A stretch of DNA of 64,000 bases from positions 1-64,000 of the forward strand of contig SDNP01000006.1 of NCBI GenBank assembly GCA_004524445.1, read 5' to 3'. Position numbers and translations under genes: made by a program. This DNA comes from Candidatus Thorarchaeota archaeon (GTDB lineage Archaea; Asgardarchaeota; Thorarchaeia; Thorarchaeales; Thorarchaeaceae). Shown piece after piece: positions 48,866 to 55,792 of this stretch. The stretch's first letter is position 1; the number at the start of each line of letters is the position of its first letter. The notes under the pieces are model-generated. The model ran no database searches. It was not told the DNA's origin and saw nothing but the letters and a program-made list of their open reading frames with translations.

Positions 48866-49261
48866 ATGCCCGGGACTAGCACGACTGAAGTAGATTGCGT
48901 AAAATGCCAGACCACGTATGAGGCTGATGTAATAGAGCACATCGACCTCTCAGAAGAACGCGACATGATTCGGGCACTAAGAACGGGCAAAGTGAATCGA
49001 GTCCAATGTCCAAAATGCAGAAAGGTCATGTATTTGGACCGAAGTGTGGTTATTAACTTTGAGCCAGACAACTTGATTGTGGTGTACGATCCAAATGCAA
49101 CATCACCACGCGCGAAGAGTCAATTTGAGGAAGAATTCAGGAATGTCACCTCATTTGATGAAAACCTCTCCGAAGTTGCTGAAGACACTGACTTCAGAGT
49201 AATTTCTGATTTGGATGAACTCAAGCAGTTGCTGAAGGAGTACAAGAAAACCTATCTATAG
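48866..49261 (+). CDS. CpXC domain protein
   Basis: CVKC..IDL..L.G..N..CPKC pattern. Confidence 0.7.
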   Translation: MPGTSTTEVDCVKCQTTYEADVIEHIDLSEERDMIRALRTGKVNRVQCPKCRKVMYLDRSVVINFEPDNLIVVYDPNATSPRAKSQFEEEFRNVTSFDENLSEVAEDTDFRVISDLDELKQLLKEYKKTYL

Positions 49262-50323
49262 TTCTCTTTTTCCAAGCAAGAACTCCTCTACCCATCGTTC
49301 GGCTCTGTACATCTTGGTTGGTTTGGGTGGCATCTTGAAACCATATGCTGAAATCGATTCAAGTGCTCCTCCGATTCCTCTATTCAGCGCTAATTTTGTA
49401 CCTCTGATAGCGTCGAAAAGTATGGGACCCGCATTAGGGCCATCTGTCACTTCCATCCTAATGTCTATCTTGATGGGTGCTCCACCAAATTGACGACCAT
49501 GAATATAGAAGTATGAGTCACGAGAGTTGTCCATAAACGGAACAAAATCTGATGAACCAGCCACAATTGGTGCATCATACGGAACGTCTTGACCCACTGC
49601 GGAGCTTTTTACTCCCCGTTTTCGCATGCGGCCTCGATAGTGTGAGTCTAGAGACTCAGCACCTCCTCCTACGTCTAGCTGGTAGCTTTCATCGATCTTG
49701 ACGCCTCTTGATACGAGTAACTGCATCAGGTTCCTATGAAGTACCGTTGAGCCAAGCTGGTCCTGAATGTCGTCTCCAACAAGAGGTATGCGTTTGTCTT
49801 TGAATTTCCTGTCCCATTCCGGATCTGAGGCTATGGATATCGGTGTACCGTTGATGAATGCACAACCAGCATCGAGTGCTGCCTGAGCATAGAATTTCGT
49901 CGCCTTTTCTGCAGAGCCAGGTATAAGACAAATCACCATGTCCGCTCTGCTGTCGCGCAATACATCGACTACATCTGCTTCTTTAGCATCAGAAACATTT
50001 GCGAGCGCCTTGAGGTTCTTGTCTACTCCGTCTAGCTCTCTTCCTCGATGAACTTTGACGCCCGTTTTCTCTATCTTGGCAAATTTCATGACATTATTTG
50101 GCTCTGCGAAAATAGCTTCTGCCAGGTCTGCCCCTACTTTTCCTTCAACCACATCAACAGCCGCAACAAAATCAATGTCTCTCACATGGTATCCCGCAAA
50201 GTCTGGATGATCCAATCCAATAATCTCGTCACTTGCTCTTGCGTCCCTATAATACTCTACACCTTGCACCAATGCGCTGGCACAATTACCGATGCCAACT
50301 AATGCTACTTTTATGTCACTCAT
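49256..50323 (-). CDS. ino1: Myo-inositol-1-phosphate synthase
   Basis: GIGNCASALVQG, FINGTP, GDDI..QLG.T..HR, YQLDVGG, DGPNAG. Confidence 0.88.
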   Translation of the reverse strand: MSDIKVALVGIGNCASALVQGVEYYRDARASDEIIGLDHPDFAGYHVRDIDFVAAVDVVEGKVGADLAEAIFAEPNNVMKFAKIEKTGVKVHRGRELDGVDKNLKALANVSDAKEADVVDVLRDSRADMVICLIPGSAEKATKFYAQAALDAGCAFINGTPISIASDPEWDRKFKDKRIPLVGDDIQDQLGSTVLHRNLMQLLVSRGVKIDESYQLDVGGGAESLDSHYRGRMRKRGVKSSAVGQDVPYDAPIVAGSSDFVPFMDNSRDSYFYIHGRQFGGAPIKIDIRMEVTDGPNAGPILFDAIRGTKLALNRGIGGALESISAYGFKMPPKPTKMYRAERWVEEFLLGKREL

Positions 50324-50456
50324 ATCGAAAACATCCAACTTGCCTTTCCTAAGCCATTGAGAATATTTTACCATTATAAACTTTTATGGACATAGAATAG
50401 TATGAGCTCAATGCTCTTGTGGCAGTAAATTTAATTGCCTTGGCGCGAAATAATAT

Positions 50457-50684
50457 GGTGGACGACAGATTGACATTCGTGCTCCAAGTTGTAATCCCCA
50501 GGCGGTGGGATTGCTCTACTGTCAATCGGCACCTATAGGAATGTCCAGATCATTGGAGGTTCCTGCCGAAGAGGATGGTGTTCACATTGACGGGCGAGGA
50601 GCTGTTCATGTTCATCAAAAGGGGTGGACCTCAGCCTTTCGGGCGTGAGAAAAAAAAATTGGGTGGTGTCGATCGTCGTCCACC
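50457..50684 (+). ncRNA. Unidentified structured non-coding RNA candidate (~228 nt)
   Basis: Perfect 10-bp closing helix GGTGGACGAC/GTCGTCCACC, several internal helices with G-U pairs favouring the + strand, an AAATTTAAT box about 25 nt upstream, and a U-rich tract downstream. Confidence 0.6.
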
Positions 50685-50930
50685 TTTTCTTCCGATTCTC
50701 CATCTATTAGAAGTTCTAAAAGAATACATGCGATTTTTCCTAAATCGAATTGTCGAGCAATCAAGATCATGTTCATTCTTTTTTACAAGTAAAATCGCCG
50801 TTCAACTAGCATAGCATTCTTATGGCAATAGAAAACGACATTTGCATACAGCAGATTCAGGCTGCTCTTAGGATTCAAAAGAACCCTCATCAAAAGCACC
50901 CAATAATCTCCATGCCAAGAAGTGATCAAG

Positions 50931-51332
50931 ATGAAAACAGACTACGACCCGATTGAGATGGAGATTGCGGAACTAAAACCAAGAATGAAGCGTCTCAAGG
51001 TGACATTCAAGGTACTCGAAAAAAGCAATCCTCGAGAAGTCACAATAAAGCGCGATGATTCCAATCACCAGATCGCTGATGCGGTTGTTGCAGATGAAAC
51101 AGGCTCTGTTGTTATGCCTCTCTGGGACAAAATGATAGATGAGATAGAGGTAGGTCGCACCTACACACTGAGTAACGGATATACTGGCACGTTTCGAGGG
51201 AGTCTTCGGCTCAACATTGGCAAGTACGGGAAAATCACGGATGCAGAAGAAGAGATTGACGGAGTTAATCTAGAAAATGATGTATCAGAATTAGCAGAAA
51301 AACCACATTACTACCGTGGAAAGGGTACATAA
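50931..51332 (+). CDS. Single OB-fold single-stranded DNA-binding protein (SSB/RPA-like)
   Basis: IAELKP..VTFKVLEK..VADETGSV..LWD..NGY..FRGSLRLNIGKYG. Confidence 0.85.
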   Translation: MKTDYDPIEMEIAELKPRMKRLKVTFKVLEKSNPREVTIKRDDSNHQIADAVVADETGSVVMPLWDKMIDEIEVGRTYTLSNGYTGTFRGSLRLNIGKYGKITDAEEEIDGVNLENDVSELAEKPHYYRGKGT

Positions 51333-51342
51333 TATGAAATCC

Positions 51343-52572
51343 CTACTCAAGGGCTCTCGCGAGCAAATCAACAACATCTACTACATCGATGTTACTCCCA
51401 ATGAGCTCTGTACCCGCTTTGAGATTGTGTTCACAAAATGGACAAGCTGAAACAATCTTCTCGGCACCAGTGTCTTCCGCATCTCTTACTCGTGCAGAAC
51501 CTATCTTCTTGGCAGTATCCGAATCAAAAGAACGTAATCCTCCACCAGCTCCACAGCATATGGCAGTATTCCTATTCGTTTCCATCTCAACAAGCTCAAT
51601 GCCTGGAATTGATTCCAGAACATGTCGCGGGCTGTCGTATATTCCCATCTCTCGACCTATATGACACGGGTCGTGATATGTTAACCTTGTTGGACTGCTC
51701 AGAGGTTTGGGTTCTATCTTGCCATTTCGAATCAGTTCATCAGCATACTCAACAATATGGAGCACCTCCGGTAACTCAATGCCAAATCGCTCTGGATAGT
51801 CCATTCTAAGAGTCTTTAGACAACCCGCACAGGACACAACTACCTTCTTGGCACCGGTGGAGCGAATAGCATCTTCTAGCCTCTTTGCCATAGTTTCAGC
51901 TTCATTTACCTTTCCAGTTCTCAACATAACTGAGCCGCAACAGGGTTCATCGCGCAGGACTGCAAACTCACCGGGCGCAGCATTTAGAATTTTGGCTGCG
52001 TCAATGGCTATTTTAGGGATACGCATACCTGCTGTACAGCCAACATAGTAGAGGACATCAGCCTGTTCTGCAACATCAAAACCTAAGGCTTGCAACCATT
52101 CCATCTTTTCCAGATTATCATCTGAGTAGGGGTTGCCCACTCGAGTGATTCTCTCGGCGATGGAATCCCGGACCTCGTTTGGAATCTCATTTAGGACCTC
52201 ACGTACTTGCTCCAGTGCCTGAGCCGGATGGAATTCAGCGGGGCAAATCTGGTTACAATTTCCACATAAGGTACATTGGTAGAGTGAACTGGCATTCTCC
52301 TCGGTTTTCTCAAGAGTACCGTCTAGGAGGGCTAATGCAACCTGTATCTTCCCTCTCATGAAGGAGGTTTCAAAGCCACTAGTATGCTTCCATACGGGGC
52401 AAATTCCGTCGAAGCCCTTTGCTGCATAGACGGCATCTCTGCAGATTCCACAGCGTCGACATTGGAGGAGTTCTTCTCTGAGAAATTCTAGGTCTATATC
52501 AGCCATGTCAGATTCCTTCATGCACGCAGAGGTAATGTCGGCGTGAGATTTTTGGTTTATGGACTTTTTCAT
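51343..52572 (-). CDS. Fe-S oxidoreductase (GlcF/HdrD-like): 4Fe-4S dicluster plus two CCG domains
   Basis: CRRCGIC..CP, CTLCGNC..CP, YVGC, CCG..CAGC, HDPCH, CCGAGG..ACPFC. Confidence 0.9.
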   Translation of the reverse strand: MKKSINQKSHADITSACMKESDMADIDLEFLREELLQCRRCGICRDAVYAAKGFDGICPVWKHTSGFETSFMRGKIQVALALLDGTLEKTEENASSLYQCTLCGNCNQICPAEFHPAQALEQVREVLNEIPNEVRDSIAERITRVGNPYSDDNLEKMEWLQALGFDVAEQADVLYYVGCTAGMRIPKIAIDAAKILNAAPGEFAVLRDEPCCGSVMLRTGKVNEAETMAKRLEDAIRSTGAKKVVVSCAGCLKTLRMDYPERFGIELPEVLHIVEYADELIRNGKIEPKPLSSPTRLTYHDPCHIGREMGIYDSPRHVLESIPGIELVEMETNRNTAICCGAGGGLRSFDSDTAKKIGSARVRDAEDTGAEKIVSACPFCEHNLKAGTELIGSNIDVVDVVDLLARALE

Positions 52573-52606
52573 CCACCTTGTTCCCTAGTTCTTTCGTCCT
52601 ACCCAT

Positions 52607-54013
52607 TCATACGCCCCCCAATACGCCAGGGTTCATAATGCCATTAGGATCAATGGTTTCCTTTATTATGCGAATCAATTTGAGATAATCTTCCATCCCC
52701 TCTACTCCCTCAACCCAATATGATGCCAACTTGAAGGGCACAGCTCCTGTCTTGAAGATTCGCTGTGCTAGATCTCGGTGGGCGGTGACTACCTTTTCTT
52801 CCTCTTCTTGGTCTACTGGGTCCCAGTAGAGGTGTGGATACATGTTAACAGAAGTATGCCCCGTAGCAAAGCCTGCTGTGTGTCCAAGGAAACCATATTG
52901 ATCCATCACAGCCCATATCTCCTCAACAGATCTGTGCCAGTTTGACGGGGTCTGATGATGGTATAACGTCCGCCACCAGAAGCCGTGAGCATAACAAGAA
53001 CGTGCAAAGGACCACATCCGATCCTCCCATTCACCCTGAGGGAGTTCAGAAATCCCTATCACATGCCCATCGAGGGATTTGCATATCTCCTGAGTCGTTT
53101 GCACATCGCTATCCAGCAGCTCTTGCCTCACACGACCAATGATAAGAGAAATAGTGTATGGAGGCCATTCATGTTCAGGTATGCCATATTCCTGACCTAG
53201 CATATCCATGAAGAATTGTAGAATACGCCCTTCGTAGAGGGACATGAACAATGTTTTGACATCATTGTGTTTCAGTTGCCCAACAAATTTCTGCGCATCT
53301 TCTCGTTTTGTGAATCCATATGTCTGATAATATAGGTGCCTCATCTTCTTGTAGGTCTTAACAGAAACCGCTGTGATAATACCCAAGCTGCCAAGCGATC
53401 CGATAAAGAGACCAGTTATATCAGGACCGAAGGCATACCTCAAGAATGGTCCTGGTGCATGAGGATTAGCTTCACTTCCAGTTTGAATAACCTCGCCATT
53501 CGGTAAGACCACTTCGAGCCCTACAACCATCTCAGCAATGGAACCATAGGCACTCGATCCCGGCCCGGCTCCGTTGACCGCCACATTTCCCGCAATAGTA
53601 CAGCTCAATGCAGACTCAGGATAGACTGGTAACCAGAGGCCTCTCTCACCAAGAGCTTTGTCGAGCATGCCAAATGTTACTCCTGCACCAACACGGACAG
53701 TTCTAAGGTCTTCAAAGATTTCAATCTCACGAAGGCGAAGCATGTCGATCACCAGTCCATGCTCTTTGGGTAATGCCTCTGCTTGGAGACTTGATCCGCC
53801 TGATCTTGGAGTCACAAGAATGGCATGTTTGTTTGCCAGTTTCAGGATTTCGGCGACTTCTGTGGCATTAGCAGGTCTTACGACAGCTCCTGGTCTTATT
53901 GAGTTAACTCCCATGGATGCGGTTGAAGAATATGCTAGCAAAACATCATTTCTGGTTGAAACGTATTCTTCTCCAACGATTTCGATTAGGTTCCCGATGA
54001 CCTCATCATCCAT
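52607..54013 (-). CDS. FAD-binding oxidoreductase (GlcD/VAO superfamily), copy 2
   Basis: PRSGGSSL, GAGV, GNVAVNG, GSLGSLGIIT and DPNGIMNPG motifs. Confidence 0.88.
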   Translation of the reverse strand: MDDEVIGNLIEIVGEEYVSTRNDVLLAYSSTASMGVNSIRPGAVVRPANATEVAEILKLANKHAILVTPRSGGSSLQAEALPKEHGLVIDMLRLREIEIFEDLRTVRVGAGVTFGMLDKALGERGLWLPVYPESALSCTIAGNVAVNGAGPGSSAYGSIAEMVVGLEVVLPNGEVIQTGSEANPHAPGPFLRYAFGPDITGLFIGSLGSLGIITAVSVKTYKKMRHLYYQTYGFTKREDAQKFVGQLKHNDVKTLFMSLYEGRILQFFMDMLGQEYGIPEHEWPPYTISLIIGRVRQELLDSDVQTTQEICKSLDGHVIGISELPQGEWEDRMWSFARSCYAHGFWWRTLYHHQTPSNWHRSVEEIWAVMDQYGFLGHTAGFATGHTSVNMYPHLYWDPVDQEEEEKVVTAHRDLAQRIFKTGAVPFKLASYWVEGVEGMEDYLKLIRIIKETIDPNGIMNPGVLGGV

Positions 54014-54037
54014 TCATAACGACCTCAGATGTTTGAA

Positions 54038-55447
54038 TCAAATACCCCCGAGTACACCTGGATGCATGATGTTATCTGGATCAAGAGATGACTTGAGTAC
54101 CTTGATAAATCGCATATAGCTTTCCATCTCCTCAACACCATCAACCCAGTATGGTGCCAACTTGAACGGCACTGCACCAGTCTTGAACAGCCGCTTGGAC
54201 AACTCAGCGTGGGCATCTCTAACTCGTTGTTCTTCGTCGGGATCTTCAGGGTCGAAGTAGAGATGTGGATAGAAATTATACGAACTGTGACCGCTCTGAA
54301 AACCGGCTGTATGACCGAGCAATCCGTGTTTGTCCATGACCTTCCAAATCTCCTGCACCGACATGTGCCAATTTGCAGGGGTTTGATGATGATACAAGAT
54401 TCGCCACCACCAGCCATGAGCATAGGACGACCTCGCAAATGTACGCATCCTGTCTTCCCATTCACCCTTTGGCAATTCGGGTATACCTATCACATTCCCG
54501 CCCAAGTCATCACAGATTTTGGCAGTGAGATTGACATCACTCTGAAGTTGGTCCTCTCTCAACCTGCCCAAGGTGAGAGAAACCGTAAACTCCGGCCACT
54601 CGCGTTTGGGTATACCATACTCATCTCCAAGCATATCAAGAAAGAAGCCTAGGATTCTCCCCTCATATATGGAAACAAACAATCCTTGAATTCCCTGTTG
54701 CTTGAGCTCTACCAAGAACTTCTCTGCCTGCTCTTGCTTATTGAATCCGTATGTTCCATAATGGAAATTATGGATGCGTTTGAAGACCTTGAGAGATACG
54801 GCAGTGATTATGCCCAGGCTTCCCAATGAACCGATGAACAAGCCCGTTATGTCTGGTCCGAAAGCATATCGAAGAAAGGGGCCGGGTGCATGGGGGTTTG
54901 CCTCGGTTCCTGTTTGGACTATAGTTCCATCAGGAAGTACAACCTCCAGACCAAGAACCATCTCCGCAATCGATCCGAATGCACTCGAACCAGGTCCTGC
55001 ACCGTTAACAGCAACATTGCCCGCAACAGTACAAACTAGCGAAGACTCTGGATATATTGGAATCCAGAGGTCCTTTTTGCCTAGGTGCTTGTCTAAAGAT
55101 CCAAAGGTAACACCGGCTCCAACTCGTATGCTCCTCAAATCATCGAAAATCTTGACCTTGTTGAGTCGAAGAAGCTCCACTACCAGTCCCCCTTCACTAG
55201 GTATAACTTCTCCTTGAAGACTGGAACCTCCAGATCGTGGGGTGATGGGAATCTTATACTTCCTCGCCACCTTCACAATCTCAGATACCTCTTCCGTGCT
55301 TTCTGGCCGTACAACAGCATCGGGCCGTGTGGCATCGTACCCAATGGAGGCAGAAGCAGAATACGTCAGCAGTACATCTTCTCTTGTTGAAATGTAGTCG
55401 CTGCCAACAATTTCTGTGAGTCTCTTGATGGCTTCTTCATTCAACAA
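54038..55447 (-). CDS. FAD-binding oxidoreductase (GlcD/VAO superfamily), copy 1
   Basis: Same motifs as the downstream paralog and colinear with it over the full length. Confidence 0.88.
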   Translation of the reverse strand: MLNEEAIKRLTEIVGSDYISTREDVLLTYSASASIGYDATRPDAVVRPESTEEVSEIVKVARKYKIPITPRSGGSSLQGEVIPSEGGLVVELLRLNKVKIFDDLRSIRVGAGVTFGSLDKHLGKKDLWIPIYPESSLVCTVAGNVAVNGAGPGSSAFGSIAEMVLGLEVVLPDGTIVQTGTEANPHAPGPFLRYAFGPDITGLFIGSLGSLGIITAVSLKVFKRIHNFHYGTYGFNKQEQAEKFLVELKQQGIQGLFVSIYEGRILGFFLDMLGDEYGIPKREWPEFTVSLTLGRLREDQLQSDVNLTAKICDDLGGNVIGIPELPKGEWEDRMRTFARSSYAHGWWWRILYHHQTPANWHMSVQEIWKVMDKHGLLGHTAGFQSGHSSYNFYPHLYFDPEDPDEEQRVRDAHAELSKRLFKTGAVPFKLAPYWVDGVEEMESYMRFIKVLKSSLDPDNIMHPGVLGGI

Positions 55448-55462
55448 AACATTCCTCGGCGT

Positions 55463-55792
55463 CTAGAATATGTGTCTGATTTTCATGAGGTCGGACGCAG
55501 ATCCTTTGACCTTAAGCTTGCGCCTTAGCAGCGCTGATGCGGCGCTCATCTCTTCGAGAAAGAGCTTCCTGATTGTTTCTTCATCACTTTGGATTTTCAT
55601 GTCCGGATCTTCGACGGGCCCATCTTCAACTTCTATTGTGTTATCCGCAACAACGAAATGGTATTCTCCACCGTCCTTCAAGCTCAGAAGCGCAGTTCTC
55701 TCCCATCCTTCGATGGCCTCTTTTGTCTTCTCTCTTTCCAAACCTATTGCAATCCTTTCGCGCATTAAATCAAGTAGGGGTTTATCATTCAT
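55463..55792 (-). CDS. SCP2 sterol/lipid carrier domain protein
   Basis: DGGEYHFVV..VEDG..DPDMKI..KLF..A..ALLRRKLKVKG pattern. The start is MNDKPLL. Confidence 0.8.
   Translation of the reverse strand: MNDKPLLDLMRERIAIGLEREKTKEAIEGWERTALLSLKDGGEYHFVVADNTIEVEDGPVEDPDMKIQSDEETIRKLFLEEMSAASALLRRKLKVKGSASDLMKIRHIF

Follow-up and report, generated by a model that had tools for sequence, protein, structure and literature searches.

Positions 50457-50684 of the plus strand of the 64-kb stretch of Thorarchaeia DNA analysed here (the window) very probably hold a genuine gene of a new RNA family. We also consider the fuller statement likely: that this is an independent, structured noncoding RNA (ncRNA) gene of ~228 nt, that it belongs to a new single-copy family found across the class Thorarchaeia, and that its product serves in trans as the scaffold of a ribonucleoprotein (RNP). 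The element is present once in its own 2.79-Mb genome, as judged by genome-wide search, and stands out from its flanks in GC content (0.48-0.55 vs 0.30-0.36). None of 200 dinucleotide shuffles equalled the folding energy of its plus strand (-97.2 kcal/mol, z -5.03), whereas the minus strand of the same interval reaches -69.6 kcal/mol with a z of -2.43 (MFE folding). The RNA probably starts near 50455-50458 and ends within the U-run after 50684.

These values bear out an earlier note on this DNA, which had described a GC-richer island holding a highly structured RNA of ~228 nt. All the sequences that it quoted were found at the positions it gave: the pair GGTGGACGAC/GTCGTCCACC, AAATTTAAT at 50427-50435, TTTTCTTCC at 50685-50693, two hairpins (GTAATCCC/GGGATTGC and CTCAGCC/GGCGTGAG) and the A9 tract at 50650-50658. 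The features of the locus, with the helices of the RNA numbered from P1 to P8, are as follows.

49256-50374, minus strand: ino1-like gene, divergent from the RNA (Pfam Inos-1-P_synth, 63.5 bits)
50425-50437, plus strand: BRE/TATA-like box GTAAATTTAATTG, from comparison of 30 homologous loci
50457-50684, plus strand: structured ncRNA, 228 nt (MFE and z as above; full-length matches to model R1; covariation; RNA-library contig)
50457-50466, plus strand: P1 5' strand, GGTGGACGAC, with its partner GTCGTCCACC at 50675-50684; core GGACG/CGUCC nearly invariant
50468-50477, plus strand: P2 5' strand, partner at 50665-50674 (fold; covariation)
50481-50485, plus strand: P3 5' strand GCUCC, partner GGAGC at 50598-50602; conserved in sequence, so covariation evidence is limited
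50491-50514, plus strand: P4 hairpin, GUAAUCCC/GGGAUUGC, differing in sequence among genera
50519-50593, plus strand: P5 long arm, 50519-50526 and 50528-50533 with 50577-50582 and 50586-50593; P6 at its tip
50536-50565, plus strand: P6 hairpin, blocks GAAU-G-UCC/GGA-G-AUUC with a conserved G.G mismatch
50566-50576, plus strand: P6' remnant (alignment A5)
50610-50629, plus strand: P7 hairpin, GUUCAUC, A-rich loop, GGUGGAC; stem rich in U-G pairs
50630-50649, plus strand: P8 hairpin, CUCAGCC/GGGCGUGAG (fold)
50650-50658, plus strand: A9 tract, unconserved
50685-50693, plus strand: T-rich tract TTTTCTTCC, likely an archaeal terminator (terminator-like scan match)
50922-51332, plus strand: Ssb-like OB-fold gene (Pfam PF21473)
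51343-52572, minus strand: CCG/4Fe-4S gene

Fold and strand of the RNA

One architecture is common to single-sequence folds of 30 homologs and to the alignments. It is a multi-helix junction closed by a terminal stem (P1+P2), and the junction holds P3, the variable hairpin P4, the long arm P5 and then the hairpins P7 and P8. P3 (GCUCC/GGAGC) surrounds P4 and the long, variable P5, at whose tip a three-way junction bears P6 and, in other genera, P6'; 3' of P3 come P7, P8, the 3' strands of P2 and P1, and finally the U-run.

When this structure of 54 pairs was counted over the 30 homologs, 88.6% of cells held standard pairs and 36 pairs showed changes on both sides, figures that are inflated and lean towards the model because the alignment used for counting was fitted to it. 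The covariation score was 0.418, against 0.192 in shuffled alignments (0 of 500 as high) and 0.05-0.11 when partners were slid by 1-3 columns. Many independent compensatory changes occur in each of P4, P5, the outer pairs of P6, P6', P8 and P2; P3 and P7 vary too little in the 30-homolog alignment for true compensatory support.

The terminal helix (P1+P2) has both-side changes in 11 of its 15 pairs. Within P1, columns 3-7 are paired with columns 384-388 in 30 of 30 sequences, one pair showing four A-U to G-C double changes, and in P2 GATTGACA is paired with the 3' strand GGTGTCGATC. P3 formed in 22 of the 30 homologs in constrained MFE folds, and P4 has both-side changes at all eight of its pairs. 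P5 forms an arm of 10-16 bp in 27 of 30 homologs despite its varying sequence, and its inner part, GGCACC with GGTGTT, shows double changes at four of four pairs. P6 is the family's strongest sequence block: 90% of its cells are paired, five of ten pairs carry double changes, and GGTTCC closes its GGAAT hairpin. The outer P8 helix has double changes at four of five pairs. In P7, 85% of cells are paired and the changes are one-sided and pairing-preserving only (GUUCAU/AUGAAU in genus g4, for example), so that support for this hairpin is moderate.

Two parts of the RNA set the window copy apart. P6' is lost in the window's genus (g1), making the window copy an atypical member of the family; in all other positive genera it is near-invariant, and in 14 genera it was found as a hairpin, CUCUCAC..GGUUCAGAGAG, whose UCA bulge spans 3 nt. 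The A tract 3' of P8 has nine residues in the window and seven in the sister species G001, and is absent from other genera.

Set against this fold, about half of the internal helices proposed in the earlier note are not the conserved ones. Its GATTGACA/TGTCAATC helix gives way to P2, its ATCGGCACC/GGTGTCGAT helix to the inner P5, and its GAGGTTC/GGACCTC helix to P6. Nor is the suggestion of two conformations supported: no conserved alternative pairing of the GATTGACA/TGTCAATC type turned up when the 30 aligned sequences were scanned, and alternative pairings among the mutually complementary 5' GGACG, GAAUGUCC, ACGUUC, GGUGGAC and 3' GUCCAC come without compensating changes. The strand, by contrast, had been called correctly. 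Over the pairing cells of the 30 homologs, G-U and U-G outnumber A-C and C-A by 191 to 29, and because of this excess the plus strand is the one that acts as RNA.

Transcription signals and genomic neighbourhood

Across the 30 loci, a box of the form (R)AA(N)CTTA(A/T)(T/N)T stands at a fixed spacing ~20-23 nt before the 5' end of the RNA, with a proximal element resembling CAT(A/T)NTAT after it; this BRE/TATA-like box is the presumptive promoter. At the other end, CGUCCAC is followed by a pyrimidine/T-rich run in 30 of 30 homologs. As far as sequence can show it, the plus strand is transcribed as a unit of its own between the TATA-like box, in its putative promoter role, and a T-run terminator. 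In the same genome, the gene for RNase P RNA (G000:C49:52993-53325, minus strand; L002:1834-1900) has a similar box, GTATAGTTAATTAC, ~30 nt upstream, and boxes of this kind may be a promoter type shared by stable RNA genes.

Metatranscriptome data are compatible with expression. A 169-nt contig from a salt lake, with one mismatch and a depth of 30, covers 50490-50656; it is a weak sign of expression, as RNA libraries can contain DNA and the contig leaves ends and strand unmapped. Other RNA-library contigs match the SSB gene, the stretch directly 3' of the RNA and the ino1-like gene (~92% identity), and for all these contigs uncovered parts and relative depths are uninterpretable. One of them, X5 (depth 3.9, 50663-50810), joins the last 22 nt of the RNA to 126 nt downstream and could reflect read-through, the 5' UTR of the SSB gene or DNA carry-over, which are indistinguishable here.

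Of the 30 loci, 26 have the ino1-like gene as the divergent upstream neighbour of the RNA, and 25 have the CCG gene convergent downstream. In the window, the CCG/4Fe-4S gene heads a conserved gene block (51343-55792, minus strand). Because the whole block is syntenic, adjacency of the RNA and the ino1-like gene does not by itself imply function, and the synteny of the block, CCG gene included, suggests inherited gene order rather than functional pairing. A same-strand SSB-like gene sits 3' of the RNA, between it and the CCG gene, in just 8 of the 30 loci, a count that does not bear out the functional tie to the OB-fold protein once proposed. Among the conserved neighbour genes of the 30 loci, Pfam gave none with an RNA-binding role. 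The ino1-like protein itself carries the motifs GDDIQDQ, QLDVGGGAES, MDNSRDSY and TDGPN, with NAD_binding_5 below the Pfam cut-off; relatives encode an ino1-like ortholog and a second paralog at 42-47% identity, and the window's protein may be a paralog that acts on a different substrate.

Distribution and novelty of the family

How far does the family extend? BLAST finds a copy of 93% identity in the sister species and, in genus g7, a conserved core of 40 nt only, and this core seeded the covariance models. Model R1, built from four sequences including that of the window, makes exactly one full-length match in each of 63 of the 86 genomes of the GTDB family, and model R2, a core model of 123 positions built from 30 sequences, finds copies in 69 of the 86. 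Over the class Thorarchaeia as a whole, covariance-model matches occur in 69 of 87 genomes, in 22 of the 24 of high quality and in 15 of 17 genera. The RNA is single-copy in 68 of the 69 positive genomes, the exception having its second copy on a contig of 541 nt. In the window, positions 50458-50688 score 219.5 bits with R1, a model partly built from this very sequence, and R2 gives the core (50526-50634) 70.3 bits; besides matching both models, the window copy has the GGACG/CGUCC of P1, the GAAU-G-UCC/GGA-G-AUUC of P6, and P7, with P6' missing.

Elsewhere in the phylum, the covariance models were run on 125 genomes of 26 further families and gave no credible copy. Two weak R2 matches in family f9 (E ~0.03; L076:1501-1589, L077, genus g39) are false positives inside an AT-rich HEPN-like ORF, where a P6' look-alike, UCUCAC..GGUUUAGAGA, lies within the reading ...RNKIVHKY.... 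Genus g10 (four genomes, 83-93% complete) and family f2 (one genome) yielded no copy either genome-wide or, with filters off, beside their ino1-like orthologs, where the space is too short or filled by ORFs. Since g10 and f2 have no copy and the window's genus has no P6', the RNA, or parts of it, may be dispensable.

An exact-pattern scan of the genomes of 185,579 species returned 27 archaeal records and two bacterial ones, against ~7 expected by chance on our own estimate. Labels on the archaeal records read Thorarchaeota, Promethearchaeota, 'uncultured archaeon' and, once, Hermodarchaeota. R1 does not match either bacterial record; of nine archaeal loci checked with it, eight give a full-length match and one a match cut off by the end of the locus. 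The record labelled 'Candidatus Hermodarchaeota' (L080, JBHLLF010000002.1) holds a full-length copy scoring 33.5 bits with R1, and its label may be at odds with its GTDB placement among Thorarchaeia.

Rfam 15, searched at gathering thresholds with the whole window, gave no match to the RNA. At E<=10 over 50300-50850, cmscan gave two chance-level partial matches only, to sR53 (13 bits, E 1.6) and, in the flank, to HgcG (10.8 bits). ARAGORN found no tRNA or tmRNA gene in the whole window, and the likeness to C/D-box or H/ACA sRNAs goes no further than partial chance-level matches, the UGAUG-like letters in P6' being unconserved. A full-text literature search found no account of this RNA. The earlier note had ventured a novel class of Asgard ncRNA, and that inference holds in view of the absence of an Rfam match, the strong covariation and the presence in 69 of 87 Thorarchaeia genomes: on sequence grounds, this appears to be an undescribed ncRNA class of Asgard archaea with no detectable relation to a known family.

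Possible functions and comparison with known RNAs

What might such an RNA do? Our preferred reading, which we hold tentatively, is that it serves, in trans, as scaffold for an RNP peculiar to this lineage. The plus-strand gene would be transcribed independently into a stable, highly structured RNA of ~228 nt; fixed irregularities in its helices (the G.G mismatch, the 3-nt bulge and GGACG/CGUCC) would provide contact sites for protein or tertiary structure; and the RNA would then act in trans, bound by protein. We are led to a scaffold because most of the conserved nucleotides sit in irregular helices and not in a single-stranded seed, and to a protein-bound RNA acting in trans also because the molecule is closed by its own ends, single-copy and near-universal in the class. 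A further reading makes the RNA a subunit of a previously unknown Thorarchaeia-specific RNP or ribozyme in which the P6 G.G, the P6' bulge and the P1 GGACG/CGUCC are catalytic or protein-docking sites; we consider it possible and rather doubtful.

The RNA might instead regulate mRNAs in trans as an sRNA, base-pairing with them by a conserved stretch left single-stranded; the ino1-like mRNA is a possible target. A promoter and terminator of its own would suit such a regulator, as would the place that the RNA keeps next to the ino1-like gene (26 of 30 loci). It could draw on partly conserved single strands at the P3/P7 junction (ACCACUCAC) and in the A-rich P7 loop. We nevertheless judge it unlikely. 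Conservation lies mainly in helices, with no seed, and the whole of this large RNA is structured; across 23 loci, RNAduplex gave the ino1-like 5' region no advantage over shuffled targets as a pairing partner (mean z -0.05); the conserved blocks have no extra match in the genome, a genome-wide search for exact matches giving none that was informative; and, the block being syntenic as a whole (with the CCG gene in 25 of 30 loci), the position beside ino1 looks like inherited order. In a comparison with 23S rRNA, for which the relative G030 was used (the 23S of G095 is unassembled), mimicry and complementarity to the RNA were limited to chance-level 8-13-mers.

The near-invariant nucleotides at the multi-helix and three-way junctions, namely the P6 G.G, the P6' UCA bulge and GGACG/CGUCC, might also form the active site of a new ribozyme or the pocket of a ligand-sensing RNA, and the size and complexity of the molecule resemble those of other orphan large structured RNAs. 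However, no known ribozyme or riboswitch model matches, neither a cleavage site nor a downstream expression platform is apparent, the next gene is convergent in most loci, and P6' is dispensable in genus g1, all of which makes this reading quite improbable. A cis-regulatory leader or riboswitch, which would lie in the 5' UTR and on the strand of the gene it controls, does not fit: at 26 of the 30 loci the RNA points away from the ino1-like gene, the following gene is mostly convergent, and the plus strand is shown by the G-U excess and by where the box and the T-run stand.

Could the gene instead encode a strongly diverged member of a known housekeeping family, such as a further RNA of RNase P/MRP type, one of SRP type or a Y RNA? 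GAAUGUCC resembles the CR-I of RNase P RNA, GAAAGUCC, an echo remarked upon in the earlier note, and an end-to-end terminal stem followed by a U-run recalls the outline of Y, SRP and RNase P RNAs. Yet cmscan has no relevant match even at E<=10: the RNaseP_arch model (RF00373) matches neither at the gathering threshold in the window nor at E<=10 in 50300-50850, and Archaea_SRP (RF01857) gives no match. Canonical genes for both RNAs are present elsewhere in the genome, that for RNase P RNA at G000:C49:52993-53325 (166.4 bits, model positions 1-288) and that for SRP RNA at G000:C30:17030-17340 (113.5 bits). The CR-I echo is not borne out either, as GAAUGUCC is the 5' strand of a covarying local hairpin, paired with GGAGAUUC in P6, rather than part of a P4 helix formed at long range; where GAAUCAUCC takes its place, in three sequences from genus g7, the hairpin is kept and the putative long-range GUCC/GGAC pairing is broken. 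As for a Y RNA, the Ro60/TROVE protein (PF05731) was not found in the 90%-complete genome, and control genomes matched as expected. A diverged housekeeping RNA thus seems highly improbable.

Least credible of all is a riboswitch-like minus-strand leader of the ino1-like gene, a repeat or MITE, or a chance fold: the element does immediately precede the start codon of the ino1-like gene at 26 of the 30 loci, but the excess of G-U over A-C cells would leave the minus strand full of mismatches, that strand folds worse, the TATA-like box and T-run fit plus-strand transcription, the element is syntenic and single-copy in its own genome and in nearly every other, with no terminal duplications seen, and covariation excludes chance.

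To our knowledge, few structured ncRNAs of archaea have been described beyond rRNA, tRNA, RNase P RNA, SRP RNA and guide sRNAs, and we know of none, and a literature search yielded none, that is specific to the Asgard archaea, the closest known relatives of eukaryotes. An RNA of ~230 nt that is class-wide and single-copy and has a covarying complex fold points to an unrecognised RNA-based function, in an RNP or as a ribozyme, and if that reading is true, a new functional RNA machine would have arisen in an Asgard lineage. The RNA model lets annotators fill a conserved 'intergenic' gap in Thorarchaeia genomes, and the RNA itself offers pull-downs, structure probing and metatranscriptomics something definite to aim at.

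Among known systems, the archaeal RNase P and SRP RNAs (RF00373 and RF01857) share with the Thorarchaeia RNA a size class of 200-330 nt, one copy per genome, a TATA-type promoter of their own, ends paired in a terminal stem and conserved blocks within irregular helices. The Thorarchaeia RNA differs from them in having neither a P4-type pseudoknot nor the SRP helix-8 motif, and in being confined to one archaeal class where they are universal. With Y RNA and YrlA it has in common a long stem formed from both ends, a 3' U-run and internal structured modules, whereas no Ro/TROVE gene was found in its genome, no Rfam model matches the RNA, and ARAGORN detects no tRNA-like module in it. The orphan large structured ncRNAs raiA, OLE, HEARO, GOLLD and ROOL come from bacteria or are associated with phages, and some go with particular neighbour genes; the Thorarchaeia RNA, by contrast, is archaeal, syntenic with a metabolic gene block and without a match to their Rfam models. 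What it shares with these orphans is a covariation-supported complex fold, strong sequence blocks, a lineage-restricted distribution and a function that was unknown at discovery.
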